This document shows positions 6,062 through 29,585 of a DNA stretch of 58,683 nt, piece after piece. Location: the sequence record OR506460.1; one strand, 5' to 3'. The notes below the pieces were generated by a model. It was given only the letters and a program-made list of their open reading frames with translations. It ran no database searches and had not been told where the DNA came from. Both the position numbers and the translations under genes were made by a program. Source of the DNA: Enterococcus phage AS-M1_NWU. The first letter of the stretch is position 1. Each line of letters starts with the position of its first letter.

Positions 6062-6557
6062 TCGGCGCCCACATGCACACAGAAAAGTCGCCAGCGTCGA
6101 ACTCTCTTAGATGCGATATGTGACCGAAACGGCACCCGCCAGTGATTACCAGCTCGTCGATTGTTCCGAACTCCTCGCAACCCTCGACAACTTCTTCCAG
6201 TGCTTCGGCCAGTTCTTCGATGTAGGCTTCCACTTGTTCACGCCAAGACGCTCTTATTAATGCGTTAGCTTCCATCATCAAACAATTTAATGAACTTTCG
6301 CACCCGCTGAAATCTAAAGGAGATTCTAACTCAACAGAATCAAACTCGCTAGACTGGACGATCTCCCACGCTTCCCCGAAGTGGTCAACGCTGATACACT
6401 CCGGCGCATTCATTAGGTTATTTTCTTCGAAAAGGTCGCGTAATTGATTTTCGAAATCTCCGCGGGTATCTAATGAAGTTCCTTTAGGTAGACCCGTATT
6501 AACATCATCAATGATAGATTGGAAGATAGACGCTTTAGTGTATGCTAATTCAGCCAC
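5988..6557 (-). CDS. highly acidic hypothetical protein (candidate DNA-mimic/anti-restriction); GTG start
   Basis: Listed ORF start (TTG at 6572) lies inside the conserved leader RBS; GTG at 6557 is 8 nt after gagga. Very high D/E content. Confidence 0.45.
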   Translation of the reverse strand: MAELAYTKASIFQSIIDDVNTGLPKGTSLDTRGDFENQLRDLFEENNLMNAPECISVDHFGEAWEIVQSSEFDSVELESPLDFSGCESSLNCLMMEANALIRASWREQVEAYIEELAEALEEVVEGCEEFGTIDELVITGGCRFGHISHLREFDAGDFSVCMWAPNEAGESEIYYNFRGLELRGVVYHG

Positions 6558-6611
6558 GGTAATAATCCTCAATACTGGTTTAATTTTCCGGTTCGTTCCG
6601 GCTATGTGTGT

Positions 6612-6640
6612 AATATAATACTACCGCTCTCAGGTGTCAA
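6612..6640 (-). promoter_or_regulatory. sigma70-like early promoter copy 3
   Basis: revcomp ttgacacctgagagcggtagtattatatt. Confidence 0.6.
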
Positions 6641-6662
6641 CATGTTTTTATAATTATTTTCC

Positions 6663-7064
6663 TCAATCGGGGAAATAGGGGATTCTACATTCACATAAGG
6701 TCAGATTTTCTATGTGGGTAAAAATGACCTCTAAGTGTAACGTCTTCCAGCACTGGCCGGAATTCAGGAAATGCCGGCGGATAATGAGCCAGCCCCGATC
6801 ATCTTCGACTATTCCGGATATGCGAAGGCTTACAATAGTTTTGTTGTCTGAGTAAGCCGGTTTACTCTCCGGATCAGCTCGGAAGTAAAACGCATTAGCT
6901 AGATTTAAAATAGTCTGTATGTCGTGCGTAGATAGTTGTAACTCTTTTTCGTGCGGACTCAAGAACGAAGAAAGCCGGGATCTCGCCCGGCGTGAATTGG
7001 TATCTTTAGGAACTGATGAAAAGTATGTCACACCGTCCACCCCATTAACTGTATAATCGCTCAA
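6663..7064 (-). CDS. hypothetical protein
   Basis: 133-aa ORF. Confidence 0.45.
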   Translation of the reverse strand: MSDYTVNGVDGVTYFSSVPKDTNSRRARSRLSSFLSPHEKELQLSTHDIQTILNLANAFYFRADPESKPAYSDNKTIVSLRISGIVEDDRGWLIIRRHFLNSGQCWKTLHLEVIFTHIENLTLCECRIPYFPD

Positions 7065-7233
7065 AACTTTTCACCTCTCGATGTGTAACGGTTCGGTTAT
7101 AAGAGACGTTACGTGTTAACATAAAGCGCATATCCCACGCTGGACAGAATAGCGAACCGTCCCCATTGACAGTAACTTTTTCGTCGTCAGCGATTAAAAT
7201 CATACCGCTGTTTAGAGTAATTTTATTCTTCAT
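7045..7233 (-). CDS. hypothetical small protein
   Basis: Track ORF trimmed to ATG at 7233 (overlaps upstream stop by 11 nt). Confidence 0.3.
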   Translation of the reverse strand: MKNKITLNSGMILIADDEKVTVNGDGSLFCPAWDMRFMLTRNVSYNRTVTHREVKSFERLYS

Positions 7234-7465
7234 CGTTATCTCTCCCACGTATCGCAGATATAAACGCTTCCCCGCTCTCCTGATCAGGCCACGCAATCCC
7301 GCCAACCACGCCGAACGCTATCCCATAAAGACAGAAACGCGCGACGGTTAGATCACCATATACGGCCAAAGTTCCCACCGCCCCCGCGAACCCTACCGCA
7401 CAAAGAGACGCGACGACAAAACCGAACGCCCCGCGAGCCTCTAAATTATTTAATTTCTTAGCCAT
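7223..7465 (-). CDS. small membrane protein (2 TM)
   Basis: 80 aa, Gly/Ala-rich hydrophobic helices. Confidence 0.4.
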   Translation of the reverse strand: MAKKLNNLEARGAFGFVVASLCAVGFAGAVGTLAVYGDLTVARFCLYGIAFGVVGGIAWPDQESGEAFISAIRGRDNDEE

Positions 7466-7476
7466 AGATAAACTCC

Positions 7477-7803
7477 TTACGGGTGAATAATAATATTATC
7501 GTTGCGTGTTCGAACCGGCTCCGATAAATACATATTCGCCACCTTACCGCTTTTTATATCCTTTTTAATCTCGGATATCATCAAGCCCGACCGAATAATT
7601 ACAGAAGACGGGCTACTCACTCTTTCTTCTGATATCGCAACAGGGAAAGGGAAATCATTCAATAGGTTATCGATGAACTTTTCCAGATAATCCGCGTCGG
7701 CTTTATGGGAGAGGACGACATATTGCTCATAGTTCGCCTCAATCCCTGTGACAGTCAGACGATGCGCAGAACGGAAAAGATCGAAAGGAATTTGTTTGCT
7801 CAT
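7477..7803 (-). CDS. hypothetical early protein (first gene after promoter copy 4)
   Basis: ATG at 7803 preceded by RBS tgagg; promoter 7836..7864 upstream. Confidence 0.5.
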   Translation of the reverse strand: MSKQIPFDLFRSAHRLTVTGIEANYEQYVVLSHKADADYLEKFIDNLLNDFPFPVAISEERVSSPSSVIIRSGLMISEIKKDIKSGKVANMYLSEPVRTRNDNIIIHP

Positions 7804-7835
7804 TACTAAAACCTCAGTTTGTTTGTGTGCTGAGA

Positions 7836-7864
7836 ATATTAACAACACCTCGGGCCGGTGTCAA
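7836..7864 (-). promoter_or_regulatory. sigma70-like leftward early promoter copy 4
   Basis: revcomp ttgacaccggcccgaggtgttgttaatat. Confidence 0.55.
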
Positions 7865-7974
7865 CAAGTTTTTTTATCTATAAAAATTCTGACGGAACAA
7901 AGGAAACGCGCCCACCGGTGCGCCCGTACATACATATAAGACGGACAGTTTGTACTTATCTACAAAAATCTCAG

Positions 7975-8144
7975 GCTTACTTCAAAAACCTCGCGGGCCG
8001 ATGATTTTCTGTGACGATTTAAAAACTTTTCCGGCCGGCTTACTTCAAAAACCTCGCGGGCTGAAAAAATTCCCGTGAGGAATAAAAACTGGCCAATGGA
8101 TTTATCTACAAAAATTAGAACCTAACTTCAAAAACCTCGCCGGC
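7975..8144. repeat. three ~25-bp direct repeats (ggcttacttcaaaaacctcgcgggc) interleaved with ttatctacaaaaat repeats
   Basis: copies at 7975..7998, 8037..8061, 8121..8144; ttatcta[ct]aaaaat at 7883, 7955, 8102; between divergent promoters. Confidence 0.7.
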
Positions 8145-8204
8145 TGACGGAAATCCTCGGGTAACATCGATTAAAACTTTACGGTTAAAAATACATAAAA
8201 ACGT

Positions 8205-8233
8205 TTGACACCGCAAACAGGTTAGATTAGTAT
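8205..8233 (+). promoter_or_regulatory. rightward early promoter TTGACA-N17-TAGTAT
   Basis: ttgacaccgcaaacaggttagattagtat, 40 nt upstream of ORF 8275. Confidence 0.5.
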
Positions 8234-8274
8234 TCTCGGACATTAAAGATGATTAGCCACAACAAGGGGAAAAC

Positions 8275-8706
8275 ATGATCGAGTCAGAAGATATTATTTT
8301 CGTAAACGGCGACAAACCTAAAATCGATAACTCGCCCGCGCTAGAAAGTCGCAACACGGTTAGTGTAGAACTAGAACGAGAGTTAACCGCAGCGTCTTCG
8401 ATTCCAGACAAACTTACAGTAGTACCAACAAAAGGGAGACCCACCAGCATGGTAGGTATGATCGTATCGTTAGATGTCGGAGACGTGTTTACTAAATCCG
8501 AGTTTATTCTTGAAGTTTCAGACCTCGACGCCATGAGCGAGAGCGTAGACCTGACTGCACGAAAAGAAAAACTCAGACAAAGCGTAAAAGCGTCTATGAC
8601 CCACGCTAAAAAGAAAACTAATGGCGAATATACTTTAGAAACGCACCACTTTATTACGCCGTTGGGTCGCCTTTACATTCAAGTTTTAGTGACCCGTATT
8701 TCCTGA
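8275..8706 (+). CDS. hypothetical early protein
   Basis: 143-aa ORF, RBS aagggga before ATG. Confidence 0.5.
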   Translation: MIESEDIIFVNGDKPKIDNSPALESRNTVSVELERELTAASSIPDKLTVVPTKGRPTSMVGMIVSLDVGDVFTKSEFILEVSDLDAMSESVDLTARKEKLRQSVKASMTHAKKKTNGEYTLETHHFITPLGRLYIQVLVTRIS

Positions 8707-8787
8707 GCAATTTTTTGTAGGTTTCACGTTTTTTAAAAAGGCGTGACACCCTATGGCAAACAACCACCCTATCGGAGAGAAAAACCA

Positions 8788-9099
8788 ATGGAACGCAACG
8801 ACAATTTAGAGCACACCACCCCCGTAGACCCTGATAAACAAATCGTCAAGTTGTTAGAGGGGAACCCGGAGCTTTTAAAGCACTTTTATAAACTTTCCGC
8901 AATGGCGGATAAAGTGGGAGAGATGGAACGCTCTTTCGAAGAACGCGTTGACGCCGTATTTAAAGTAGGTATCCGCCTAGTCATGATCGCGAGCAACCGG
9001 AAAAACCTTATCGTAACCGATGACGATGTGGCAAAGGCGGAGAACTCAACACTGGAAGTTAGCGAAAATAACGGCAATGTTAAATATATGATCAAGTAG
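8788..9099 (+). CDS. hypothetical protein
   Basis: Start moved to ATG 8788 with RBS ggagaga. Confidence 0.45.
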   Translation: MERNDNLEHTTPVDPDKQIVKLLEGNPELLKHFYKLSAMADKVGEMERSFEERVDAVFKVGIRLVMIASNRKNLIVTDDDVAKAENSTLEVSENNGNVKYMIK

Positions 9100-9104
9100 G
9101 TAGT

Positions 9105-9425
9105 ATGAAAAATTCAAACGTAGCACTCGCCATTGATTCCGTTTTGGTAAAAAAGAAAATTGATATTATCCCGGTTTTTAAATCGTTAGAGGAAGTCTAT
9201 CAAATGCGGATACAAGCGTCGTGGTCAGGCATCACCGCGCACACGCCAGAACGACGCATCTATACCCACGGCCACCCGACTACAAAGATGGCAACAACAC
9301 CGGAACAACGTACAACGTATCGCCTACGGCTATTGAAATTCCTCAGATGGCTATACGCGAACAACTACACAACGGGGCCACTGTTAGAAATCAAATCGTG
9401 GCTAGAGGAGCAAGAGGAATGGTAA
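9105..9425 (+). CDS. hypothetical protein
   Basis: 106-aa ORF. Confidence 0.4.
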   Translation: MKNSNVALAIDSVLVKKKIDIIPVFKSLEEVYQMRIQASWSGITAHTPERRIYTHGHPTTKMATTPEQRTTYRLRLLKFLRWLYANNYTTGPLLEIKSWLEEQEEW

Positions 9426-9766
9426 AGGTCTTATACAACAGCGAACAAGCGCAAGTAAACCAGTTGCGAGACCAGATTAAATCGCACACTGAGGAGTTTG
9501 AAACCGCGATGGCCGAAGTCGACCAGATCATTAAAGAAAATATCGAGACATACCTAAACGATATATCCGGGTTAATGATGTCGATAGTTAGAGTCTATGA
9601 CAATGCTGAGATTGAGGACAAAGCGACAGCCTTAGATCTTGTTCACTCTAAAGCGGTAACTCGTTTAGCATCCATTGAAGATAAGAGCATTGAGCTACGC
9701 GCCCATATTGAACACTTAGTATCCACCATTAAAAACGGAGTGATTAAAAACAATGAAACCATTTGA
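9419..9766 (+). CDS. hypothetical coiled-coil protein
   Basis: Internal ATG 9419 with RBS gaggag; longer listed start overlaps previous gene out of frame. Confidence 0.4.
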   Translation: MVKVLYNSEQAQVNQLRDQIKSHTEEFETAMAEVDQIIKENIETYLNDISGLMMSIVRVYDNAEIEDKATALDLVHSKAVTRLASIEDKSIELRAHIEHLVSTIKNGVIKNNETI

Positions 9767-10841
9767 TAAATTTATTGCGTTTGCGATATCAGAACCGGCA
9801 GACCCCAATAATACGACCTCGTTTTCCGCATTAGCGAACGGGTCAGAAGACCAACTAAAACAACTAGGCCGAGAACTAGAAACAAGCCTAAGAAACCTAC
9901 CGATCGGAGACCCAAGCGCTATGCAGTGGACGCGCCACGGTTTTGCTAAACCCGACGAGAACGCCGAACCGATCACCGTTGTAGATGAAGTCCTAGGGGA
10001 CATGGAAGACACGCCATACGTTATGATAGACGAAGCGGGTAAATATCTCGTGTTCACTTTCGAAGAACGCGCTCGAATGCTAAGCCCGGCAACGATCAAG
10101 GACGAATTAGAGGTTAAAGTAAAAGATTGGATAGAACGAGTTGGTGACACCCCGACAAAACGTGAACGTAATGATATGCGCGATGAAATCATCAATGACT
10201 TGTTGCCAAAGGCCACAATAAAGCGCACTAAGACATACGCCATGATCATCAAGGGCGTTCTTGTTGTCTTCGCTGGCAGCAACAACATAGGTGAAAAAGT
10301 AGCATCGGCAGTAAGAAAGGTAGTAGGGTCTCTCCCGGTCGTCCCGTGGTTTGAGCATTCGTCCCTTATTACGGAGTTTTTAAAGAAAATCGCTACGGTA
10401 GACTTTGACCCGGAAGATGCAGTAGGCCAAGCGCTAGATAAATTTGAGATTGTCCGTAGTGCTAAAGTCTCCGCTGAAACAGGCGCGTACACTTTCAAAG
10501 ATGTTTTTGACATCACGAATGACGTTTCATTCAAAGAAGCGCTAGGACAAACTAACGGATACTCATACCCACTCGGGATCACCGAAGCGAATTTAGAATT
10601 ACGACATGACGCCACAGACAGCCCTATCGGTTTTGTTCTTACGGCCAAAGGCGTTTTAAAGAGCGTAAATTGGAATGACGAGCCGGAAAATATTTTCGAC
10701 GACTCCGTGTTTGACACGAACGAGGAACGGGAGCGTGCTCGATTTGTTTTCTCTACATGGGACGCTTACACCTTAGTTACGGCCGTACTAGGAGCGCTAC
10801 ACAACGCAAACGCAAACCGATTTGTAGAAGACGATATGTAA
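9753..10841 (+). CDS. rdgC: RdgC-like recombination-associated protein
   Basis: 362 aa; block ...DEIINDLLPKA...GSLPVVPW... matches E. coli RdgC region ...DEVLHSLLPRA...GSLPVVPL... Confidence 0.55.
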   Translation: MKPFDKFIAFAISEPADPNNTTSFSALANGSEDQLKQLGRELETSLRNLPIGDPSAMQWTRHGFAKPDENAEPITVVDEVLGDMEDTPYVMIDEAGKYLVFTFEERARMLSPATIKDELEVKVKDWIERVGDTPTKRERNDMRDEIINDLLPKATIKRTKTYAMIIKGVLVVFAGSNNIGEKVASAVRKVVGSLPVVPWFEHSSLITEFLKKIATVDFDPEDAVGQALDKFEIVRSAKVSAETGAYTFKDVFDITNDVSFKEALGQTNGYSYPLGITEANLELRHDATDSPIGFVLTAKGVLKSVNWNDEPENIFDDSVFDTNEERERARFVFSTWDAYTLVTAVLGALHNANANRFVEDDM

Positions 10842-10843
10842 TT

Positions 10844-11044
10844 ATGAATACAGAACGTAAAAAACTGGCGTCTAACCTGACAAGACTAAAAGTCGGAGAG
10901 TCTTTCTTCGTAGAATGTCTTCCGAAAGACCTAGCCCACGTTCGACGCCTAGCTTATAAGCTGAATATTAAGTTATCCATGGTTCGTGTCGATGTCGACC
11001 CGATCTACGGAACATTGGGGACGAGGATATCTCGCGTCAAGTAA
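10844..11044 (+). CDS. hypothetical small protein
   Basis: ATG 3 nt after previous stop. Confidence 0.35.
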   Translation: MNTERKKLASNLTRLKVGESFFVECLPKDLAHVRRLAYKLNIKLSMVRVDVDPIYGTLGTRISRVK

Positions 11045-18192: not shown

Positions 18193-18472
18193 CTCGAAAC
18201 TGATTTATTTGTTGTGCGGTATTATGTTTTATATCGGTGATTTCCCGCTCGGCTTGTGTTGTTCGTTGTTCTAGGACTCTAACATCGGCCGAGATCAACA
18301 AAACATCGTTTCTAACATTGCTAAACTGGTTATTAACCCACATTATACCGCTACACAACGCTACTATTAGCGAAAGGATTGTCGGGATATTGATCGCCAA
18401 GTCAATGCGAACGCCTCCCGTACCTCCATCTCTACCCGCCATATTGCCCCCGTTATCGGTTCTTATATCCAT
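18128..18472 (-). CDS. putative holin-like protein (single TM + coiled-coil/charged C-terminus)
   Basis: 114 aa (possibly starts at internal ATG 18442); overlaps endolysin start. Confidence 0.3.
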   Translation of the reverse strand: MDIRTDNGGNMAGRDGGTGGVRIDLAINIPTILSLIVALCSGIMWVNNQFSNVRNDVLLISADVRVLEQRTTQAEREITDIKHNTAQQINQFRGEVREDLRDIKTSVQKLADKK

Positions 18473-20438
18473 ATATCATCTTACACACGATCCTAACGCG
18501 ATGTCTCTGCGGTGGGTGTGGCATGTGATATAACGAAGAATCGACGCGCACAACATTTTGATACACGGACGTAGACTTTATGTCGGAAAGAACTGAGTCT
18601 TTATCCGGGTACTCAGCTACCATTGCCAGCGAAGATGAAACCTGAGCGGAATTAATTCGCGAATAAACCGTACTTTTATCAGGATATCTGGCCGAGAACG
18701 CAACGTTAGCCGAAGTTTGTGTCGTCAACGATAAGGAGTTTAGCGTATTTGCGGGCAAATAGTTAGCCTTACACGCGATATTTTGCGTTACTAATCCCGT
18801 GAAATCATACATTAAAAACGATTTCACCGGAGGGTAGTCAACCGAGTTAGCGATATTAAATGCTACTAAGTCCGTTTGGCCAACCGTCATCGGTAGTCGA
18901 ATATCAGGGTACGATGCCGTTACCGCGATATTTTTAGCTAAACTACCCGTTTCGACTCGACTCTGAGGTTCTTCCGTAGACGGGAACGAACTCGTCACCA
19001 TGGTGTGTTGGGCTAGGCCCGAAATAAAGTCGCCATTCTTCGCCATGTCTTCCGGGGTTGGCATAGGAGATTTTATCCCGGAAACAATAGATAGCGAGGC
19101 TATGTCTTCCGGTGATATCGGCATACCATCGTCACGTTTCATCGCCGTAGATGTAACGTATTGAGTAACATGGTTTCCTTTCTCCAGTTCTACCACGTTA
19201 TCAAGAGGTGGGTAAAACCGTTTAGGCGCAGTCATCAACGTCAGGATCGGTACGGAATACGTTTCTGTGTAACTGTCTTTGTGAGCCGGCCCGAAGTCCG
19301 ATTCTAGTAACATCGCCACCGTAGCAGACCCTACCGCATTTAAAACGAAGTACGACTCTAGCGGAGGTTGTGGGCTGTCTTGTATGGCCAAAATATTAAC
19401 TGACGGTGAAGATATATCTGACCAACTCCACGTTGCGTCGACCCCAATCGCTGATAATGACACAACGGAACTAACGTCCTCCGGGGAGATCGGTAGTTCA
19501 TCAATGACCGACTCCACTTGAGACAATAAAACTTGGCCGACATCAGTATCGGATTGCGGATATACATAATCCGATGACAGAATCGCTTGAGTGAAAACCT
19601 GAGACGATTTCTCCACTCCGACGGTCGGATCATCGTCCACCGGTATTGACGCTAGGCTGACAATCTGAGGGACATTTTCAACCCCCACTCGTGCCGGAGG
19701 TGTAGACGGGTACGACGACAATTGAACGACGCTACCGGAAGACGTGAAAGAGTTAGGGAGACCGAACAAATCCGTCGGAACCGATGCTAAATGTGTTACC
19801 GTTCCGACGTCCGCCGGTCTTGTCTCCCATTTCACAGGAGATGAGTAGGAAACCAACGATACAACGCTAGGAGAGTCAACCCCGGATCTCGGGATATATT
19901 CGATATCCAAAGACTGACAAACGAGCATAACCTCGGAACCCACCCCCGTGTTCGACCACACATCGGCCGGTCGGAGTTGCGGTAGCCCTTGGTTTACGAG
20001 GTGGACGTTTTGCCCGATAAACTTCATGGACGTAGTGTCGTATTCCGTACCAACGACTACTAGTTGCGTAAAAGACTTCACATCAAGTTTAGAGATCGGC
20101 AACGCTTCAACCCACGAATAGGTCGCGGTATTTATTACCTCACCAATGATATTGTTTGAAATCTCAAACTGGTACGACGTGTCGTAGACAACTTGGTTTA
20201 GCGCTTGTGGGACAGTAATTACCGTTCTTGCGGTAGAGTCGGTGCTATATACGATGTTAGAAGTAACAGACCTAACACGAATAGGTGAAATTTGGTAGAC
20301 CACGTTTCGATGTTGCGACCGAAAACGCAGTCTCGAGGATAACTGATATAGAACATTCCGGTGGGTAGACCTTGCCCTAAAGTCAGGCAAGATCTGATAA
20401 ACGACAGCCCGCGAAGTGTTCCTTGCGTTGACTGCCAT
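18453..20438 (-). CDS. tail fibre/spike protein with internal sequence repeats
   Basis: 661 aa; N-terminal R..RNV(V/L)YQ(I/L) repeats x3; C-terminal YPDK/YPDIR/YLPAN repeats; Ser/Thr-rich. Confidence 0.5.
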   Translation of the reverse strand: MAVNARNTSRAVVYQILPDFRARSTHRNVLYQLSSRLRFRSQHRNVVYQISPIRVRSVTSNIVYSTDSTARTVITVPQALNQVVYDTSYQFEISNNIIGEVINTATYSWVEALPISKLDVKSFTQLVVVGTEYDTTSMKFIGQNVHLVNQGLPQLRPADVWSNTGVGSEVMLVCQSLDIEYIPRSGVDSPSVVSLVSYSSPVKWETRPADVGTVTHLASVPTDLFGLPNSFTSSGSVVQLSSYPSTPPARVGVENVPQIVSLASIPVDDDPTVGVEKSSQVFTQAILSSDYVYPQSDTDVGQVLLSQVESVIDELPISPEDVSSVVSLSAIGVDATWSWSDISSPSVNILAIQDSPQPPLESYFVLNAVGSATVAMLLESDFGPAHKDSYTETYSVPILTLMTAPKRFYPPLDNVVELEKGNHVTQYVTSTAMKRDDGMPISPEDIASLSIVSGIKSPMPTPEDMAKNGDFISGLAQHTMVTSSFPSTEEPQSRVETGSLAKNIAVTASYPDIRLPMTVGQTDLVAFNIANSVDYPPVKSFLMYDFTGLVTQNIACKANYLPANTLNSLSLTTQTSANVAFSARYPDKSTVYSRINSAQVSSSLAMVAEYPDKDSVLSDIKSTSVYQNVVRVDSSLYHMPHPPQRHRVRIVCKMIYGYKNR

Positions 20439-20441
20439 GGA

Positions 20442-22064
20442 TTACTCCTCTTTCACCTTAAACCCGAATGGTTTTTCCGCAACTTCACTAGGTGATATCG
20501 GGGTAGGCATCTCTACCGTGTGGACAACCGTAGAGTAGTTAGCCCCAGTAGAAGACGATAAAGGTACTTCACCGACCTCTTTGCCGTCGAAAGTAGATAC
20601 GATAGTTCCGTCGGAGGATTCTGCTCTCGCCACTGTTTTTAGTTGGACTGCTAGAACCGTACCGGCGAAATCGGGCATAGAACTTCCGTCCGTTTTGTAC
20701 TCGTCGGAATCCCCGATAGTCCCTGATAGTTCGGACGAAGTTTCGGGAGTATTCACTTTCATCGGTCTTCCAACTACACTAGCGTTCGATGAGGCCCCAT
20801 CGGGTCTCGTAAACGAGGTTTTTATGTCTGTATTCGGGCTTTCGCCCCAAACTCTGGTAGTAGGGCCGAAAGCATAATTAGCATGGTCAGATTGAGGGTA
20901 TGTACCGAACACAATATCACTTATCATCATCGGGCCACATTCTTCTGTCATATTTGGATAGAACCAAGAGGTAGAATTCGACCCACCTGACCAGTGACTC
21001 ATCTGGAAATTAAACTGGAAAGCACCGAGATAATCTCGATCACGCCGGTCGGAGTCGGCTAAATCCCCGGTGTTAGGCACGGAGAAATCCGTATTAGTAA
21101 CCCCACCGTAGTTCTTAACCGTGACACCGTCAATAATCACCATACTCATAGGACGCGTTGTGCGGTTATCTCCGTTCTTCATGAGTTTTATTTCTATGTG
21201 GTAATCCCTGTCCACCTCAAACTTAAAAAAGTCACCATCAAGCCCGGGAGAAGTATAGTTAGGTACCGTTAATTTCGAGGCCGAAGCCCCCGGGTCAAGG
21301 TAAACCCAAGGTAGGCCGTCTTTAGGAGTATAACATTCGTTTGGTTGCTGGGTGCTACTACTAAGGTTCAACACTTGCGAGCTTCCGAAAATAACGTAGC
21401 TAGCCAAGAACCCGGGAACCATATATGTTATCCCGTAGTTAGTCCAAGCGCTCCCCGGCGGTTTTACCCGAACACTCGGATACCCGACAGAAAAATACCA
21501 CGCCAGTTGAGCGCCACTTCGGTGTGAGAACCTACGGGCAAAACGAACTACGAACGAAATACTCGCCGTGTCGTCTTCTCCTACCCCAGACAACGGATTA
21601 TTGTACCTCAAAGAAAAACTATTAACGGCCCCCCACCACTGTGTAGACCCTTGGAACGGTAAAGGTCGGCCAGCTAATTTCTTCCCGGGGAATCTAAAAC
21701 GTTTCCGACCAGGCCTTGTGGGGCAAGGAACAATCGAAAAACCCACCGGCGCAACTTGATTGGATAACGCCGTAGACGATAGCGGATACCCAAACGGGTG
21801 TGATGCACTCCATTGGAAATTATTAGGAGAGGAAGACCCATCAGAACGGAATGCGTAAAGCATCACCCCACAATTCCCTCCGTTAACAAGACCTCTACCG
21901 TTAACCGTCAGTAACGGGATCTTAGAAACGTCCAATTGGCCATTAGGCACATACATATCGTCCGGAATCCACGAATTGTCGTTGTAGCCCCCGTTCATTA
22001 TGGGGTAGGTAGCTACGTCAAGGTGCTGGAAAGATTCGGTGAATATTACTTTAGGTATTGCCAC
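20442..22064 (-). CDS. tail fibre / receptor-binding protein
   Basis: 540 aa, Gly/Ser/Asn-rich, between fibre genes. Confidence 0.45.
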   Translation of the reverse strand: MAIPKVIFTESFQHLDVATYPIMNGGYNDNSWIPDDMYVPNGQLDVSKIPLLTVNGRGLVNGGNCGVMLYAFRSDGSSSPNNFQWSASHPFGYPLSSTALSNQVAPVGFSIVPCPTRPGRKRFRFPGKKLAGRPLPFQGSTQWWGAVNSFSLRYNNPLSGVGEDDTASISFVVRFARRFSHRSGAQLAWYFSVGYPSVRVKPPGSAWTNYGITYMVPGFLASYVIFGSSQVLNLSSSTQQPNECYTPKDGLPWVYLDPGASASKLTVPNYTSPGLDGDFFKFEVDRDYHIEIKLMKNGDNRTTRPMSMVIIDGVTVKNYGGVTNTDFSVPNTGDLADSDRRDRDYLGAFQFNFQMSHWSGGSNSTSWFYPNMTEECGPMMISDIVFGTYPQSDHANYAFGPTTRVWGESPNTDIKTSFTRPDGASSNASVVGRPMKVNTPETSSELSGTIGDSDEYKTDGSSMPDFAGTVLAVQLKTVARAESSDGTIVSTFDGKEVGEVPLSSSTGANYSTVVHTVEMPTPISPSEVAEKPFGFKVKEE

Positions 22065-22073
22065 AATCTCCCC

Positions 22074-23090
22074 CTATCGAGTCACGATGCCGAACTGCAA
22101 TGCTTCGACAGCGCCTTTATTCCAGTCGGTATTACCCGGAGTTTGTTCGTGGGTAACTTGGTAATATTTATAGTCTTCGGTCAAAGGCACTTGGACTTCT
22201 TTCTCAGAACCCCCGTCCGTCTGGATCACCATACCGAGTTTACGGTCGTCTAAGTCCCCTTTACGGGCATACGCAATCACCGACACGCCGAAAACCTTAT
22301 TGTTAGTCGGGAGTATCGTATTAGAACGGAAAATGTCTTTAGCTCCAGACTTGTTAGACTGTAAATACGGTGCGTTAGGTCTTCCCGGCTCCAGTTGGGA
22401 GGCAACTTGGTAATGATTTTCGTTCGTACCATTAACGATCTCCCATTCGGTCGTAACATCAGAAGTAGGAGCGCGGGTAGCAACCTCAATCGGCCCTAGG
22501 CGGGAAGTGTTTACCGACCCCGAATCGTCCATAGCGTAAAAATCATCTAGGTACTGGATACCAGCATTGGGCGCTGTACCCACTTGCCCCCATACCAGAA
22601 CGAGTTTTTCAGGCCAAGAAGTAGTAAGGGTCGCCTCGATTTGCTTTTCGTTATTAACCCACACGGTTACTTTCTTAGCGGACTTATCAAGTTCTATCTC
22701 GAAAAAATACCACGCATTAAGGATCAGCGGGTTTACCCCTTTTTGGCCATCAATTTCTAGCTTACCGTCTTCGCTATTCCACTCCACGTCGACCAAGTTC
22801 TCAACCCGACATACTCGCATACGAGAACCATTGGCTTTCATCGCGAAACCGAAACACGCGTAGTTTCCGGCCGGAGTGAACCCCCATGATAGCGACGCAT
22901 TGGTTGAGGAGTTACGTTCTACGGTAAATTTGAGGCTCTTAGCGCCATCACGACGACCTAGGTCAATCTGGAACGTATCGTCAGTAGCATTTCGGATATC
23001 ATACCCGGCTGCTTTTAAGTACGGCTCGACTACGGAACCTTTCTTGCCGATATCTGCGTAGTGGTCGAAACCGTCTTGATGTTTTAACAT
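22074..23090 (-). CDS. tandem paralog 3 (338 aa) of a three-member divergent family; putative peripheral tail/receptor-binding protein
   Basis: shares W(Y/F)(Y/F)xE(V/I), DD(L/I/F)(Y/V/F)xxDxxxxxxR(L/V)GPI(E/T)(V/I)xTRxPTxDVxxxW and C-terminal FG(I/V)(V/T) motifs with 23103..24092 and 24097..25017. Confidence 0.5.
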   Translation of the reverse strand: MLKHQDGFDHYADIGKKGSVVEPYLKAAGYDIRNATDDTFQIDLGRRDGAKSLKFTVERNSSTNASLSWGFTPAGNYACFGFAMKANGSRMRVCRVENLVDVEWNSEDGKLEIDGQKGVNPLILNAWYFFEIELDKSAKKVTVWVNNEKQIEATLTTSWPEKLVLVWGQVGTAPNAGIQYLDDFYAMDDSGSVNTSRLGPIEVATRAPTSDVTTEWEIVNGTNENHYQVASQLEPGRPNAPYLQSNKSGAKDIFRSNTILPTNNKVFGVSVIAYARKGDLDDRKLGMVIQTDGGSEKEVQVPLTEDYKYYQVTHEQTPGNTDWNKGAVEALQFGIVTR

Positions 23091-23102
23091 GAGGTGCCCC
23101 TT

Positions 23103-24092
23103 TTATGGTCTAATAACTACACCGAACGGAGTTTCAGGGATATTATCGCGATCCCAATTAGCGCCGAGCGGAGAATTTTCGAATACAGCATAACTTATTT
23201 TGTCAGTCAAGGTAAGTTTTTCATCTACCTTTTCCGATTGTTTGTCTTTCTCGCCAACCACCAACCCGAGTTGTCTATTATCTACGTCAGATTTTCGGTT
23301 GATCGCAGTGACACTCACGGCCAAGATGTCGCCTTTAGCGTCGAGCGGGATTTCACTTTTGAAAGTATCCATGGCGCCGGAGACGTTAGACTGGATATAT
23401 TCGTCCTCTTTCGGAGGGCGATTACTGACAAGAGACCAATGGTTATCGCCTTTCGATGGCGACCATTCGCTCACCACGTCCACCGTCGGCATTCGGGTGA
23501 GTATTTCAATCGGGCCAACTCGGTCAACGTATTTGCCAGCTTGCGCATCGATAAAAACGATATCATCTAATTTTTTACCGCCCGAACCGCCCGGCCATTC
23601 GCATTTGTAGTCAGTCATGAAACGAACGCTATCCGGTAATTGCCCGGCTAAGTCCGCACCGTTGTTAATGAAAACTTGGAAAGTATTTGTTTCTTTGTTG
23701 ATGACGATCTCGAAATAATACCAGATACCTAGGAGCAAGATAGCTTGACCCGTAACACCGGCCAAGGAGACTTTACCATTGTCGCGGTTCCAAGCGAGCA
23801 CCCCAAAACCGGGAATACGGATAATATCGTCCCGCACTTTGTCCGCACAATACGCAAAACCGATAACCACGCGGTTAGTCTCTGAGTTAAAAAGTCGAGA
23901 CAGTGTTGCCGGGCTTGCTGCGTTTTCGTTTACATCACCTAGGTATAAGCATCGGGTTTCTGTATTACGCCCCTCCGCAATACGGATCGGTGGTACTGCG
24001 TTGTATCCCGAGTTGTTGAGTAAATTTACCATCTTATCCGACGGCATATCTTTTAGTTGGTCGAAACCGTCCATAAATTGCATCATAATCAA
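23103..24092 (-). CDS. tandem paralog 2 (329 aa)
   Basis: see paralog motifs; ~25-30% identity by eye. Confidence 0.5.
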   Translation of the reverse strand: MIMMQFMDGFDQLKDMPSDKMVNLLNNSGYNAVPPIRIAEGRNTETRCLYLGDVNENAASPATLSRLFNSETNRVVIGFAYCADKVRDDIIRIPGFGVLAWNRDNGKVSLAGVTGQAILLLGIWYYFEIVINKETNTFQVFINNGADLAGQLPDSVRFMTDYKCEWPGGSGGKKLDDIVFIDAQAGKYVDRVGPIEILTRMPTVDVVSEWSPSKGDNHWSLVSNRPPKEDEYIQSNVSGAMDTFKSEIPLDAKGDILAVSVTAINRKSDVDNRQLGLVVGEKDKQSEKVDEKLTLTDKISYAVFENSPLGANWDRDNIPETPFGVVIRP

Positions 24093-24096
24093 GCCC

Positions 24097-25017
24097 TTAC
24101 GCTTTTAGAGTTATTCCGAAAGTTGAGTCCGGTATTACGTGCTCCGGGAGCACTCCAAGTTCTGAGTAACGATATTCCCAATCACGAGGTAACGTAGCTT
24201 CGTTTTTAACTAGCTCGTTTGTGAACACATCTACGCTAACAGGATCTACGGTGGCTTTTCGGAGGAGTGTTATTACCGAAACACCTTTTACTTCTGTCTC
24301 CTCCGATAGCACGGTTTCCGAGGTGAAAGAATCCGTAGCACCATTCGTTCCCGTATAGATGAACCGGTCAACTAAGTTCGGTAGTGCGGGAGCTACGACC
24401 TCATGGTGAGATTCCCCACCGGAAACACCCCAATCTTTCGATACGTCTTTCGTCGGAACGCGAGTGGTGACGGTGATAGGCCCGACTCTCGTAGTGTCGG
24501 CATAATACAAGTCATCGAAGCGAATGTCCGCGAAATCCGACTCGTCGAAGTCCCGCAATGTTATTGTGAGCGTGTCTGCCGTCGCTACACCATCTGGTAT
24601 CGAGACCGTAATGTCTTTTTTACCGTTGATATAGACGTCGGCCGTCTTTGCGTCTTTGTTTACTTCCACTTCTAGATAGTACCAGTTGTTACGCAATGGG
24701 ATAACGTAACCTGACTCTCCCTCGGACTGTAATAACCCTGTGGTCTGGTCTACGCCAATTTTAAGCGTACTATCCCCGCCTGAGATGCCTACGAGATTTC
24801 CTCTCGTGGTCATATTGAACGCGAAACCTACGGTAAAATTGCCGGTATCCGATGGGAAATCTCGGGATATTCTACCTCGGCCGAGTAGGACGCTTGCGCC
24901 GTTCTTACGTCCTGCGCCGAAGCCGAAAGACCCCGAAACGGTATACCCGGCTCTACGCATGAAAGCCGGGGAATCCCCATCGAAGGCGAACTGTTCGAAC
25001 CCCTCGAAGAAAAACAT
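24097..25017 (-). CDS. tandem paralog 1 (306 aa)
   Basis: see paralog motifs. Confidence 0.5.
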   Translation of the reverse strand: MFFFEGFEQFAFDGDSPAFMRRAGYTVSGSFGFGAGRKNGASVLLGRGRISRDFPSDTGNFTVGFAFNMTTRGNLVGISGGDSTLKIGVDQTTGLLQSEGESGYVIPLRNNWYYLEVEVNKDAKTADVYINGKKDITVSIPDGVATADTLTITLRDFDESDFADIRFDDLYYADTTRVGPITVTTRVPTKDVSKDWGVSGGESHHEVVAPALPNLVDRFIYTGTNGATDSFTSETVLSEETEVKGVSVITLLRKATVDPVSVDVFTNELVKNEATLPRDWEYRYSELGVLPEHVIPDSTFGITLKA

Positions 25018-25760
25018 TAAGCCCCCTGAATCATTAATCTAATAATAAAGCCGAAGTTAACGGCCGAGTCGATTGTATCAACCGGAGCTAAGATTGTCAG
25101 CCTGTCACCTTTGAAAAATCTCACGGCAACGCTACCAGACGTCACGAAAGTGGCGTTATATTGCCCCCGATCGACAGTGAATGTGCCGACAGTTTGGTTA
25201 TTTCTCTGCACAGTGAACTTAGCTTTATCGAGAAAAGCACTACGGGCGTCGAATTGAGATTGTGCCATGTTAGCCGGTAGATACATATTGTCGATAATTG
25301 GCAAGTGTACGAGCACTTCCGATGGATACATCTTCTCCGAAATAGTCGCGGATACATCAAACGCCATAGGTACAACATCGGGAGATGGGTTAGGGTCGAT
25401 CGGGTCAACCCCGGTATTCTCGATGCGCCATGTCTCACCGTCCCACCAGATAAACTCATTGGTCGGGTCTAAGAATGCCCTCCACCCACGTTTAGGCTCG
25501 ATGAATTGCCACACGCCGTCGATCAATACGGCCAGTTTTCTTTCTTGGCCAACCCAAGGGCCGGTCGGGTTTTTATAGATAAAATAGGTGTCGCCGTTTT
25601 TAGCGTCAGCCGGTGGCGCACTAAACGTGATAGATTGTAGGCGTAGAAACGTAACAGTATCTAAGGTGGTTAGCGTCTCGTTCATTGGGCCACCCCAAAA
25701 ATCCTCGCCTCTCACCCAACCATAGGAAAGCCCCATGTTAGGGGCAATTTTCATTGGCAT
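25017..25760 (-). CDS. tail-associated protein (247 aa), coupled downstream of J-like gene
   Basis: ATG overlaps stop of Pro-rich frame (TAATG); W/G-rich N-terminus. Confidence 0.45.
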   Translation of the reverse strand: MPMKIAPNMGLSYGWVRGEDFWGGPMNETLTTLDTVTFLRLQSITFSAPPADAKNGDTYFIYKNPTGPWVGQERKLAVLIDGVWQFIEPKRGWRAFLDPTNEFIWWDGETWRIENTGVDPIDPNPSPDVVPMAFDVSATISEKMYPSEVLVHLPIIDNMYLPANMAQSQFDARSAFLDKAKFTVQRNNQTVGTFTVDRGQYNATFVTSGSVAVRFFKGDRLTILAPVDTIDSAVNFGFIIRLMIQGA

Positions 25761-26152
25761 TATTCAGTATCCTCTTTGACGTCTTGGTCTGGTAGTCGTT
25801 CCGCCCAATCATGATCCCACTTGTTTGACCAACCGGCAACAACCAACGGTGGCGGAGGCTCAACCGGATCAGGGTCAGGGTTGCCCGGATTAGGTTCTGG
25901 ATCAGGGTTGCCCGGGTCGGGGTCGGGGTTCGGTCTATCAGGCTGACCCGGATCTGGATTGCCGGGGTTCGTACCACCTCCAGTCTGATCCGCCTCCACC
26001 AGTTTCGCCACCGCCAGTTCCCGGGTCAGGTCTTCCCGGATTGGGGTCAACATCTCGCTTGGCCGGAATTGAGGGTACTTTACACTGAGTATTATATCCT
26101 TGCCAGCTACTAAGCTCGTTTTCATCGACAGCGGATACCGTGATCGAAACAT
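25760..26152 (-). CDS. Pro/Asp-rich ORF (PNPDPDPGNPDPEP...) overlapping C-terminus of J-like gene in +1 frame; possible frameshifted C-terminal extension of J
   Basis: 130-aa frame open across J stop, terminates TAATG-coupled to next gene. Confidence 0.3.
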   Translation of the reverse strand: MFRSRYPLSMKTSLVAGKDIILSVKYPQFRPSEMLTPIREDLTRELAVAKLVEADQTGGGTNPGNPDPGQPDRPNPDPDPGNPDPEPNPGNPDPDPVEPPPPLVVAGWSNKWDHDWAERLPDQDVKEDTE

Positions 26153-29100
26153 AGACGTATCCGGTGGATTCCGTCAATATCCCTACTCGTCTACCGAACG
26201 CGTGTAAGTCTTCGGCCTTGATCGTCATACCTGCATCGCGAGTATAATACGTCCCCATGGTGATAGTAACTGTGCGATTGCTGTATCTAGGAGTATATCG
26301 TTTCCCGACCCACACTCGATACATTACGTCGCTTGGCCGTTGTTGCCCTACGTCAAGATGGTCTAACACGGTTTCACCTTGTCGAACTCGGTTACGGTGC
26401 GCCCATGTCATCACTAAGTCTTTGCCTTGCGGGTCATAGTAGTCAAAGTTATCGGCCAGTGCGTCCCACCCTTTGAAAAAGTGCTCTCCGTTTCCGAGCA
26501 AGAACCCCGGCGGATATGGCCTATCAGCGCGTAATTTTACTTCCAGTTGTTTATTCACCACGTCTTTAGGCTGGATTTCTGCTGCGAGAGAATGCGGTCT
26601 TACTGCAACCACGCAAGTCTGGCCGTCGTGATATTTACGTTGCCCGGAAGCTATTTGTTTGTCGACAAACCACACAACTTGACCTTTCCCATGAAGTGCG
26701 GGGATTGTATCAACACAACCACGGCCAACCGTAATACGTTTACCATCGATGCCCCGGATCACCATCGCTTCGACTCCGACGAAAATCACGTCGCCCGGCA
26801 TCGCGTCCTCAGTAGGAACCCCGTCAGAATCCGACGTAGCGTCGAGGATTATCTCATTATCAAGATATGAGATTGCCTTAGATAGAATTCCCCACGGCGT
26901 CCACGGTTGCGCCCCTTGGTTCACGTACTCTGTATCGTTCTTCTCTTTCTCGAATAAATCGTACCCGTCGGTTACACGGTCTGACGGTCTAGCTACCGTA
27001 GCGAAGAATTGTGAGGCGGACGGTTCGAACCCATGGCGTAGCAACATTAAGTAAGGGAACTCAAACAGTTGGCTATCTACGATAGGAACTAATTTGCCTT
27101 GTTGCGAAACCGGTTGTCGCACATAGCTAACATTCACGCCATCAGGTAGGCCCCCGCCACCGGAAGATAGATCTTCGCTCTCCTGTGCTACGGATTGGTT
27201 GACAAAACTAACCATGGCTTTTGCGTCTACGGCCGTCTCTCCGTCTTTATCTTCCGGGTCGATTTTATCGGACACCTGAGCGACAGATTGGTTTAAGAAA
27301 CTAACATACGCCATTTGAGGCGGTTTCTTGAAAACGGTGATCGGAATTAAGTAGTTTTGCCACGATTCGAACCCGTCGCGCATCGATTCCAATCGCAAGT
27401 ATCCAGCAACCGGATCTATGGCTGACGCTTCCACGTTCAAATCTAGGCTCGCTTGGCCGTAAGTGTAGACAAACTGTGTGCCGGTAATCCCGTTTTCTCT
27501 GCGGATTACTTCACCCTTAGCGTTTAGGATACTAATTCGGTATGTCGTTCCCGGCTCCGGCCCGATACTATCTTGCTCATGATAAATCGGCTTGTCTTGT
27601 TGCATCGGTCTATCTCGGTGCGCCCACGTTATCGTCAAGGCGTCAGGAACTTCGGCCTCTCCGACGTCCGCTCGTAAAACATGGCCATTAAACCAAGGTT
27701 TCGGTTCCGTGCTTTCCACTGAGGTGAGTTCTACTTTACCCGGAGCGTATGGGCGGTAGAATCGGTAATTGAAAGTCAGTTCATCTTCGGACACGTTAGA
27801 CTCGTCGAGAACCCCACCCGATAGCGTCCATGGGAGTATCTTCACCGATAAGGTTTCTCCCGCTTGTCGGGTTGTCAGGTCAAGCCCGCCACCTTGAACC
27901 ATATCCCACACTACGGAGCCAGCGGGGTGTTGGTGAGGTACGGTGTCGTACACTCCTCGACGTATTTCGACCAACCCGTCTTCCTCGATAGACTGGATCA
28001 TGATTATTTCTTGGTTGACGTAAAAAACGTCCCCGACTTCAATCAAGTCTTCATCTACCGGATCTTTCATTCGGATATAGCGGTCTAAATATCCAAGGTC
28101 AACCGGTAATTCGAATAGCGCAGTGAAATCCCCCGCACCTGTTTTCTCATACTTTCCAGTGGTCGGGTTTTGGACGTGCATCTCGAACGCCATCGTTACC
28201 GGTGAACCTTTTTCCGCCTGTGCCCGTAAATACCCGAAAGACGGCTTGATGGCCTCAAACTCTCCTAGTGGGAATAGGGACGACAATTCTGCGTATGTCG
28301 CTTCATAAACTAAACGTCTGGCCGGAACCGGGTTTAGGTTCGGTTTAGGGAAAGACGGGTCTTGAACACCCGTAAACGTGTTCAGGTCGAACGAGAACGT
28401 GTCTTGTACGCAAGATAATCGTATCTGACCATCGGATTGTTTGCTCTCCTCTGTGTCCGCTACACGCACGATTACGCTCTCAAGTCCGCGCGTCTTCGGG
28501 TCGGAAATCTTCAAAACGTCTCCCGGTTGTACTCGCCATGCTCGACGGTCACAAACTAGGGTGAACCGGCGGACGTTAGTAGACGCAACACGTAAGTCTC
28601 TCTCTGCGAGGATTGTTGCCAGTTTTGCGGTTGGCACCCCCTCATACGTGAATGTGTCACTTTTGATGGCGCCGGAAGTCTGGATTAATGCTAGGTTCTG
28701 CGCTCGCACTTGGCTTTCTTTACCGACGATCGGGTTGAACCATTTAACGACACATTCATTCATCAGGCCATGGATTGCGCCGTTAGTCGCCTCCTCGATT
28801 TGTAGTAGACCGCTCTCAAAACCGTACACCGGCAAGTTATCCGCATCGTAGTCATTACGAAGTAACTTGAGTTTGAAAGTACCGGTAAACTTATCGACGT
28901 ATAACACGCCTGAAATGTGGTTAAGTATATTCTGGATAAAAGACTCTAGGGTGTCTTGGCGTCTCCACGCAATACAGATCCCGAACCCCTCCTCGAACAA
29001 CGTATCGGCCACCTTTCGGAACTCCGAGTCAAACAGTAGGTCACGAGAGATACCTCGGCCCCAATCTCGGTTTGTCATACACTCGTAAATAACGTGAGCC

Positions 29101-29585
29101 GGGTTCATCGCCTTGATGGGATACTCTTTCCCCTCGTCATCGTGGCCGGTAAGTTCTATGACCGCTTTTTCCGGATACCACACCCCACCGTCCCAACCTT
29201 TTAAGATGCGACGTATTTTAAATCGCCACGCTTTCGGGTATGGGTTCATGGCCGACACTAAACCATCGAAATAGCCGGTAGCTACTCCGCGAAACTCCGG
29301 TTGGCTCCCACCGCCCAACATGGATTTCAATTTGTCGCTAACAACCTGATCTTTGTCACCCATGTAGAGTTCGAAACCGCCCTCAATGCCTCCCTCCGCT
29401 TTCTTACCGCCGAAAAGATTTTCAGCCCGTATCCGAAAGAACGAGGACTCTTTAACGGAACCACGCCAAGCGGTTCTTCCGCCGACCTCGATTTCCATCA
29501 ATTCATCAATAGGGCCACGGCCGATCCCCATGTGTAGCCCCATATAGTAGGAGTAGCCGGCCGTCGCCTTTTTAAATTTACCCAC
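25938..29585 (-). CDS. host-specificity / central tail fibre protein (lambda gpJ-like)
   Basis: 1215 aa; N-terminus MGK...GPIDEL resembles lambda J N-terminus MGK...GPIEGP; position after minor tail genes. Confidence 0.65.
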   Translation of the reverse strand: MGKFKKATAGYSYYMGLHMGIGRGPIDELMEIEVGGRTAWRGSVKESSFFRIRAENLFGGKKAEGGIEGGFELYMGDKDQVVSDKLKSMLGGGSQPEFRGVATGYFDGLVSAMNPYPKAWRFKIRRILKGWDGGVWYPEKAVIELTGHDDEGKEYPIKAMNPAHVIYECMTNRDWGRGISRDLLFDSEFRKVADTLFEEGFGICIAWRRQDTLESFIQNILNHISGVLYVDKFTGTFKLKLLRNDYDADNLPVYGFESGLLQIEEATNGAIHGLMNECVVKWFNPIVGKESQVRAQNLALIQTSGAIKSDTFTYEGVPTAKLATILAERDLRVASTNVRRFTLVCDRRAWRVQPGDVLKISDPKTRGLESVIVRVADTEESKQSDGQIRLSCVQDTFSFDLNTFTGVQDPSFPKPNLNPVPARRLVYEATYAELSSLFPLGEFEAIKPSFGYLRAQAEKGSPVTMAFEMHVQNPTTGKYEKTGAGDFTALFELPVDLGYLDRYIRMKDPVDEDLIEVGDVFYVNQEIIMIQSIEEDGLVEIRRGVYDTVPHQHPAGSVVWDMVQGGGLDLTTRQAGETLSVKILPWTLSGGVLDESNVSEDELTFNYRFYRPYAPGKVELTSVESTEPKPWFNGHVLRADVGEAEVPDALTITWAHRDRPMQQDKPIYHEQDSIGPEPGTTYRISILNAKGEVIRRENGITGTQFVYTYGQASLDLNVEASAIDPVAGYLRLESMRDGFESWQNYLIPITVFKKPPQMAYVSFLNQSVAQVSDKIDPEDKDGETAVDAKAMVSFVNQSVAQESEDLSSGGGGLPDGVNVSYVRQPVSQQGKLVPIVDSQLFEFPYLMLLRHGFEPSASQFFATVARPSDRVTDGYDLFEKEKNDTEYVNQGAQPWTPWGILSKAISYLDNEIILDATSDSDGVPTEDAMPGDVIFVGVEAMVIRGIDGKRITVGRGCVDTIPALHGKGQVVWFVDKQIASGQRKYHDGQTCVVAVRPHSLAAEIQPKDVVNKQLEVKLRADRPYPPGFLLGNGEHFFKGWDALADNFDYYDPQGKDLVMTWAHRNRVRQGETVLDHLDVGQQRPSDVMYRVWVGKRYTPRYSNRTVTITMGTYYTRDAGMTIKAEDLHAFGRRVGILTESTGYVYVSITVSAVDENELSSWQGYNTQCKVPSIPAKRDVDPNPGRPDPGTGGGETGGGGSDWRWYEPRQSRSGSA

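Follow-up and report, generated by a model that had tools for sequence, protein, structure and literature searches.

Three constant paralogues and a hypervariable fourth, with predicted lectin-like folds, in the tail-tip region of a Chi-like siphophage

Introduction

Chi-like phages (Casjensviridae) serve as the model for infection that depends on the flagellum, and among them are candidates for therapy against Salmonella, Proteus, Providencia and Serratia. The structures solved for Chi and YSD1 end at the tail-tip core, and the long fibre and the genes following the hub are uncharacterised. We describe here an array of four consecutive paralogous genes (pA, pB, pC and p4), together with their neighbour p5, in the sequence deposited as Enterococcus phage AS-M1_NWU (OR506460.1; 58,683 nucleotides, the whole of which is referred to as the window). 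By sequence the window phage is a Proteus siphophage of the Casjensviridae (Chi-like), genus Lavrentievavirus, about 97% identical to PM87 and ASh-2020a. A fold and an evolutionary logic can now be assigned to five "hypothetical" genes: three ultra-conserved constant subunits (pA, pB and pC, the trio), one paralogue that is a recombination hot spot (p4) and one further variable protein (p5). The last two offer candidate targets for host-range engineering, and pA-pC for studies of localisation and ligands.

The tail-tip core of Pseudomonas phage JBD30 is homologous to that of the window. Its baseplate (PDB 8RK3) comprises the distal tail protein (DTP) gp49, gp50, the hub gp53, the DUF2793 receptor-binding protein (RBP) gp54, arranged as a tripod, and heterodimeric fibres of gp47 and gp48. 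Trimers of gp54 form the RBP tripod on the hub, and the gp47/gp48 fibres embrace the pilus (PMC11445458); for DUF2793-type proteins in general the N-terminus has been proposed as the anchor to the particle (bioRxiv 10.1101/150227). JBD30 thus shows that paralogue-like proteins of approximately 300 amino acids (aa) can make hetero-oligomeric fibres which grip a host filament. In DMS3, a relative of JBD30, the gene order is the same as in the window up to the DUF2793 gene. Neither JBD30 nor DMS3 possesses a member of the array family.

The closest structural analogue among phage proteins is the baseplate upper protein BppU (gp23, PDB 8ZDO) of mycobacteriophage Douge, which has a carbohydrate-binding module (CBM) of ConA-like fold, shown experimentally to bind host glycans (PMC13033339). 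It has no detectable sequence relationship to the array family, and the two differ in domain order (an N-terminal ring domain and then the CBM in Douge; a ConA-like domain and then a CBM resembling galactose-binding domains in the array family) and in gene number (one gene giving a dodecamer, against four diverged paralogues in fixed order). Tail decorations with lectin folds and paralogous genes for fibres belong to a known kind; this family is large, yet it has no Pfam or NCBIfam model. We found no paper on its fold, on an ancient fixed triplication, on a cryptic fourth paralogue or on the recombination hot spot.

Homology of the array genes

The four genes of the array are as follows.

24097-25017, minus strand: pA, paralogue 1, 306 aa; recognised as an open reading frame (ORF), by BLASTP and by PHROG 2448; ConA-like N-domain and CBM-like C-domain
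23103-24092, minus strand: pB, paralogue 2, 329 aa from TTG at 24092, probably 327 aa from ATG at 24086
22074-23090, minus strand: pC, paralogue 3, 338 aa; shows the highest conservation in the tail-tip module
20442-22064, minus strand: p4, cryptic fourth paralogue, 540 aa; hypervariable; recognised by a broad-family hidden Markov model (HMM) and hhalign

An earlier note, made from the sequence alone, had singled out three consecutive same-strand ORFs of 306, 329 and 338 aa as paralogues of roughly 25-30% identity. They lie on the minus strand exactly where it placed them, and significant BLASTP alignments of essentially full length relate pA to pB (27% identity, E 7e-29), pA to pC (26%, E 2e-31) and pB to pC (31%, E 9e-48). 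A three-way alignment contains 54 invariant columns, among which is found the whole of the motif skeleton that had been described: F.GF, W(Y/F)(Y/F).E, DD..Y, R.GPI..TR.PT.DV...W and a C-terminal FG. The near-invariant residues of the family are G7, F8, G45, G81, E131, D182, D183, P208 and G334. No repeat at the nucleotide level links the three genes, and the array is therefore not an assembly duplication, as the note had also held.

The profile of PHROG 2448 matches all three proteins end to end (pA, residues 1-305 of 306, E 4e-92; pB, E 2.4e-111; pC, E 7.2e-120). That clustering already implies that the trio is homologous; PHROG 2448 carries no statement on function, structure or paralogy, and does not include p4. 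An exhaustive profile search retrieved 6,079 cluster representatives of the family with E<=1e-3 and 1,338 with E<=1e-10. NCBIfam gave no match.

In order of transcription the module comprises a tape measure protein (TMP), a 562-aa DTP, a 271-aa protein, two small ORFs and the J-like hub, followed by the DUF2793 protein, pA, pB, pC, p4, p5 and the lysis genes. The trio had been placed between a J-like central fibre and two large fibre genes. The large genes are indeed downstream, but the DUF2793 gene (25017-25760) intervenes after the J-like gene, and the nearer of the two large genes (20442-22064, 540 aa) turns out to be a fourth paralogue, much diverged.

Predicted fold

An AlphaFold2 model of pC, made from 48 sequences, has high confidence values (pLDDT 95.2, pTM 0.92) and consists of a ConA-like jelly roll and then a CBM-like sandwich of the galactose-binding type.

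22521-23090, minus strand: N-domain of pC, residues about 1-190, ConA-like
R197-W216 of pC: conserved linker
22077-22508, minus strand: C-domain of pC, residues 195-338, CBM-like

The N-domain, a curved jelly roll of two sheets, superposes on members of the ConA-like lectin/glucanase superfamily, and the beta-sandwich of the C-domain superposes on modules of the CBM6/32/35 type. The model thus indicates one architecture for each array protein, a ConA-like jelly roll and a galactose-binding-domain-like (CBM-type) sandwich with an extended, strongly conserved linker between them. Of the folds that had been suggested for these proteins, the lectin-like jelly roll, offered as an alternative, is right for both domains, while nothing resembling a TNF-like fold was seen.

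The resemblance to the ConA-like superfamily (sialidase CBMs, BoNT/NTNHA HCN, PL7/PL14/PL20 lyases, GH16 and legume lectins) is one of fold. Residues 73-170 of pA match Pfam Laminin_G_3 (PF13385) at E 1.2e-3 and 19.5 bits, which is under the gathering cut-off of 27.6; neither pB nor pC matches this model, and at the level of sequence the trio does not qualify as ConA-like. The array family differs further from the superfamily in that no catalytic or sugar-site motifs were identified in it, and in the fusion of its ConA-like domain to a specific conserved linker and C-domain, an arrangement unseen in the families of the superfamily. The C-domain resembles the galactose-binding-domain-like CBMs (CBM6/32/35/36/22, discoidin, IFT25). 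When the PDB was searched with the trio profile only a marginal match to NTNHA was obtained, no solved structure containing a homologue, and searches with the p4 profile and with the DUF2793 protein gave no matches. Carbohydrate binding by the family is predicted from the fold and from the Douge analogue.

With such folds the proteins might be virion-borne enzymes, the ConA-like domain being a polysaccharide lyase or glycoside hydrolase (PL7/PL14/PL20, GH16 or GH131-like) directed at capsule, exopolysaccharide or lipopolysaccharide (LPS), with the C-domain as its CBM. We consider this improbable. The best fold matches include, equally, the non-catalytic lectin and CBM domains of sialidase CBMs, BoNT HCN, ERGIC-53 and legume lectins; no known catalytic motif was recognised; and four paralogous enzymes in fixed order, extremely conserved across hosts with different polysaccharides, would be unusual. 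A structural Ca2+ site is typical of the ConA-like fold, and the conserved acidic residues could equally well represent such a site.

Age, copy number and constraint of the trio

Using tblastn the family was found in 169 phage records (164 in a second matching set). Among the sampled rows of these records each complete Chi-like genome contains three places of match, so that the copy-number variation among related phages which had been thought worth looking for is not seen. The sampled three-copy genomes include those of Chi, YSD1 (genes 31-33), Enc34, Redjac, JS26, Saba and an Erwinia phage, and the pattern spans phages of Salmonella, Proteus, Providencia, Serratia, Erwinia and Xanthomonas. 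In a tree of all family members from six genomes there are four clades which correspond to gene position, with different genera inside each; the duplications therefore came before the split into genera, and every copy was kept. This phylogeny indicates that pA, pB and pC are positional orthologues across the Chi-like genera, and that the triplication is older than the genera of the Casjensviridae.

The amino acid identities of the tail-tip proteins to their counterparts in Saba, YSD1 and the Erwinia phage, respectively, are:

pC: 82, 59 and 49%
pB: 77, 46 and 39%
pA: 64, 33 and 33%
Hub: 64, 43 and 37%
DUF2793 protein: 66, 50 and 37%
DTP: 60, 37 and 30%

The ranking is pC, then pB, then the hub, DUF2793 protein and pA, then the DTP, with p5 and finally p4 far below. 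Across genera pC is more conserved than the hub, and pA is the most diverged of the trio.

Ratios of non-synonymous to synonymous substitution (dN/dS) were calculated among close relatives, the trio being compared with pPM_01 and PM87, to which it is 97% identical in nucleotides with a dS of about 0.12. The trio has the lowest values of the tail tip (0.011-0.025; pA 0.023-0.025, pB 0.019-0.022, pC about 0.01), as compared with 0.034-0.039 for the hub, 0.03-0.05 for the DUF2793 protein and 0.09-0.16 for p4 and p5 (p5, 0.13-0.16). Copies 1-3 are thus under very strong purifying selection, the opposite of a diversifying host-range cassette.

It was as such a cassette that the earlier note had interpreted the genes, that is, as triplicated and diversifying receptor-binding modules with variable copies and copy number. 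The lectin-like folds and the low identity among the paralogues agree with that idea. Elevated divergence or exchange among close relatives, the mark of a host-range cassette, is nevertheless found in p4 and not in the trio: the latter retains 97% nucleotide identity within the genus while the adjoining p4 falls to 62-76%, its copies are positional orthologues fixed in number with the lowest dN/dS of the module, and pC stands above the hub in conservation. Because of these comparative data the interpretation is contradicted, and we give it very little credence.

The trio might instead consist of conserved lectin adhesins, the main job of which is the reversible binding of a conserved host glycan (LPS core, enterobacterial common antigen) or of the flagellar filament. 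Both domain folds are dominated by carbohydrate-binding modules and lectins, and the BppU-CBM of Douge, the closest analogue in a phage, binds host glycans. Among 79 diverse relatives eight match Laminin_G_3 weakly (best E 1.1e-5) and one matches Sialidase-like_CBM; one GenBank record names a homologue "carbohydrate-binding protein"; and the propeller-type insertion of certain pB-type relatives, described below, suggests exposed binding surfaces. Yet with Salmonella, Proteus, Providencia, Serratia, Erwinia, Xanthomonas and Achromobacter among the hosts pC remains 49-82% identical with a dN/dS of about 0.01, a constancy which speaks against its touching O-antigen or flagellin surfaces, which vary, and no binding-site residues were identified. 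The adhesin explanation is in our opinion a serious one though on balance unlikely; it overlaps with the one that we favour (below), and differs from it by putting ligand binding ahead of a structural adaptor role.

The fourth paralogue and p5

Relationship of p4 to the trio was at first faint, being confined to C-terminal similarity (BLASTP E 0.56; hhalign E from 0.26 to 0.0072 with single sequences or narrow profiles). There is no direct match to PHROG 2448, and p4 joins the family through a broader profile made of 131 diverse representatives plus the trio (134 sequences). The HMM of this broad family matches p4 over residues 380-542 (E 5e-10), as well as its positional equivalents YSD1_34 (E 2.6e-11) and AchV4 gp27 (E 4e-33), and in the Erwinia phage it matches both p4-type genes, 34 (E 2.5e-14) and 35 (E 4.8e-19), from end to end. 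In hhalign the p4 family aligns with the broad family with a probability of 97.8% (E 9.3e-13), residues 188-539 of p4 falling on family columns 37-335; the alignment pairs FFKFEVDRDYHIEI of p4 with WYY.E. and ISDIV with DD.Y. Matches to phrog_10924 and phrog_27578 cover residues 394-481 only. The layout of p4 is an N-terminal extension of approximately 185 aa, a diverged ConA-like domain with insertions, the family linker and the C-domain, and on these profile alignments it is a nearly full-length fourth paralogue of pA-pC.

No homologue or fold assignment could be detected for the N-terminal extension. Within it, at residues 114-127, lies a basic motif, C-P-T-R-P-G-R-K-R...P-G, which is invariant across the p4 family.

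Homologues of p4 are few (13 found, as compared with 152 passing the threshold for pC), and its orthologue in Saba is only 30% identical. Against pPM_01 its nucleotide identity is 70.6% overall, with a dS of 2.46 as compared with about 0.12 in the flanks. The identity drops from 97% to 62-76% exactly at the junction of pC and p4, and it climbs back gradually within p5, reaching 91-93% at 19400-20300. The sharpness of the drop together with the dS of 2.46 indicates allele replacement by recombination. These nucleotide comparisons point to a hypervariable p4 that is exchanged by recombination, and place the signature of a host-range cassette in p4 and not in the trio. Copy number likewise varies only in p4-type genes or in the distant AchV4: most genomes have three plus one, the Erwinia phage has three plus two, and AchV4 has two plus one.

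The product of p5 is 40, 27 and 27% identical to its counterparts in Saba, YSD1 and Erw08, respectively. It was considered as a fifth paralogue and rejected, since neither the family HMM nor hhalign gave any signal. We regard it as a possible component of the distal fibre or RBP. Its N-terminus contains about four tandem repeats of the form R.(N)VVYQ(I/L)S.

Distribution, architecture and presence in virions

The N-terminal 750 aa of the hub match two PDB chains: 8vjh_A (E 0), a "Minor tail protein" of 1296 aa, and 8rk3_o (E 2.5e-120), a "Tip attachment protein J domain-containing protein" of 735 aa. From protein length and the descriptions in the papers we take the former for Chi BH2P and the latter for the hub of JBD30. 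The core of the hub occurs in 787 phage records, many of them of Pseudomonas, Vibrio, Xanthomonas, Klebsiella and Rhodobacter phages, as against 169 for the array family. The array accompanies long hubs (888-1296 aa), and no family member was found in DMS3 (hub of 735 aa) or in the Casjensviridae Klebsiella phage N133 (hub of 755 aa, DUF2793 gene present). On this distribution the array is an add-on co-occurring with the long-hub subset of the phages that share the core.

Beyond the Casjensviridae single members are found in the tail-tip clusters of Pam4 and "Tetraselmis virus S20", and others in phiCbK-like and Brevundimonas phages; in Ralstonia jumbo phages the family forms the C-terminal module of proteins of about 760 aa. 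In one of the latter, RsoM2USA, two adjacent proteins of about 750 aa (locus positions 6261-8501 and 8726-10924) end in late-ConA strands plus the C-domain (E 1e-27 and 3e-24), a second and independent case of neighbouring paralogues with this module. Several pB-type relatives of about 625 aa (P0129, P0130, P0131, P0135, P0138 and P0143) contain, after residue 60-90 of the ConA-like domain, an insertion of about 270 aa made of beta-propeller-like W-x-(A/V)-V-G...DG..W repeats. They had been considered as tandem two-copy (Rosetta-stone) fusions, which was rejected, these being pB-type proteins with the propeller-like insertion. Other relatives have C-terminal extensions of about 135 aa (P0173 and P0174) or an N-terminal extension of 146 aa (P0190). 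That a loop insertion and terminal extensions are tolerated suggests a solvent-exposed scaffold.

In the Achromobacter phage AchV4 two proteins, AchV4_0025 and AchV4_0026, were detected in purified virions by liquid chromatography-tandem mass spectrometry with 22 and 14 peptides and 75% and 35.5% coverage, respectively (PMC7996906). Both belong to the family (HMM E 5e-96 for gp25 and 2e-56 for gp26), which is thus virion-associated at least in AchV4. Tail-fibre chaperone genes are commonly encoded beside fibre genes, and trio homologues are missing from the deposited Chi tail-tip entries, as they would be were these proteins non-structural assembly factors (fibre chaperones or scaffolds) needed to build the fibre and absent from the mature virion. 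The 14-22 peptides from purified AchV4 virions speak against this, and known fibre chaperones do not resemble these proteins, which have 300-340 aa, two lectin-type domains and insertions in exposed loops; we regard such a role as very unlikely.

Probable role of the array

The tail-tip genes are spaced 3-12 nucleotides (nt) apart or overlap (4 nt between pA and pB, 12 nt between pB and pC, and the start of pA overlapped by the stop codon of the DUF2793 gene immediately upstream), and promoter- or terminator-like matches inside the array are no commoner than in shuffled sequence. This tight operon packing, with no internal signals above chance, supports the explanation which we favour with moderate confidence: the array would be an ancient, fixed set of four virion paralogues, in which the distal tail or fibre has constant accessory subunits of lectin fold, and these carry an exchangeable paralogous receptor-binding subunit. 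Of the receptor-binding or peripheral baseplate modules that had been proposed, a peripheral role in the tail or baseplate remains plausible given the AchV4 homologues in virions, while the host-range cassette does not.

The array would have been added downstream of a JBD30-type core of distal tail protein, upper baseplate protein, J-like hub and DUF2793 protein. The three constant proteins would be non-redundant, each with its own fixed place and partners, and would build or decorate a flexible distal appendage left unresolved in the Chi tail-tip reconstruction. Their constraint would reflect multiple protein partners and perhaps also host-independent glycan binding, as with the ConA-like CBM of Douge BppU. 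With p5, p4 would act as the exchangeable, host-specific distal subunit docking onto pA-pC.

Several points weigh against this explanation. Our statements on the Chi tail tip are based on PDB sequence searches and on the summary given in PMC12724387; that summary lists BH1P, BH2P, the DTP and the TMP C-terminus as the core of the tip, and trio-type proteins are unmentioned in it. Entry 8vjh, taken as the Chi hub, is present in the PDB, where no homologue of the trio or of the DUF2793 protein was found, though the Chi orthologues would be approximately 59% identical. The mass spectrometric evidence was obtained in a relative with only some 30% identity, and the p4-type gp27 was not reported there as a virion protein. 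Glycan binding is deduced from fold alone, and ConA-like and CBM-like sandwiches also serve as protein scaffolds or enzymes. The HMM E-values for p4 come from a small local database.

By analogy with JBD30, the trio could conceivably form one hetero-oligomeric, pseudo-symmetric device with one copy of each protein per hub subunit or fibre, and with p4 as its swappable specificity subunit. Such a device might either break the three-fold symmetry of the hub for the single long Chi-type fibre or clamp the rotating flagellar filament (compare JBD30 gp47/gp48 on the type IV pilus). We think this whole proposal, device and action together, rather unlikely; if true, the device would be the missing, unresolved hardware of flagellotropic adsorption.

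Neighbouring genes and other observations

The neighbours of the array are:

25017-25760, minus strand: DUF2793 "tail fibre" protein, 247 aa; Pfam DUF2793 (E 2.4e-23) and phrog_7049, "tail fiber protein"
25760-29585, minus strand: J-like baseplate hub/central fibre gene; Pfam Phage-tail_3 and phrog_6284
18453-20438, minus strand: p5, 661 aa, with which the module ends; phrog_7226 (E 1.9e-260; function unknown); outside the family

For pB the likelier start, judged from its context, is the ATG at 24086 and not the TTG at 24092: it is preceded by AAGGG, and the same start (327 aa) is annotated in PM87.

The hub gene is split in the window into two overlapping ORFs, 25938-29585 (1215 aa) and 25760-26152 (130 aa), which jointly cover phrog_6284, while in PM87 the hub is a single ORF of 1273 aa. 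The responsible indel lies at 25985-25988, where the window has 4 nt more than PM87 and 1 nt more than pPM_01, in a tract coding for Gly/Pro/Asp/Asn repeats. The split could be a sequencing error, a genuine loss of a C-terminal module of about 75 aa, or the product of a slippage-prone tract.

Genes of the gp47/gp48 type are absent from the window. In AchV4 two genes (650-2572 of the examined locus) directly follow the tape-measure gene, the position of gp47/gp48 in JBD30, and the family array is present in addition; the window phage and the Chi-like phages are without genes of the AchV4 type at this position. Since AchV4 has both and the Chi-like phages only the array, pilus-type fibre genes and lectin-fold array make up two modules that can be separated. 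Fibre proteins of the gp47/gp48 type were also considered as relatives of the array family and rejected, as AchV4 gp16 and gp17 fail the family HMM.

Homologues of the trio carry spurious annotations in some records ("short transient receptor potential channel 6", "histone-lysine N-methyltransferase"). Records 93-98% identical to the window, matching 20000-26000, are labelled as phages of Salmonella (SD-11_S17 and others), Staphylococcus (SVV09-A), E. coli (E21) and Pseudomonas; these host labels look doubtful.

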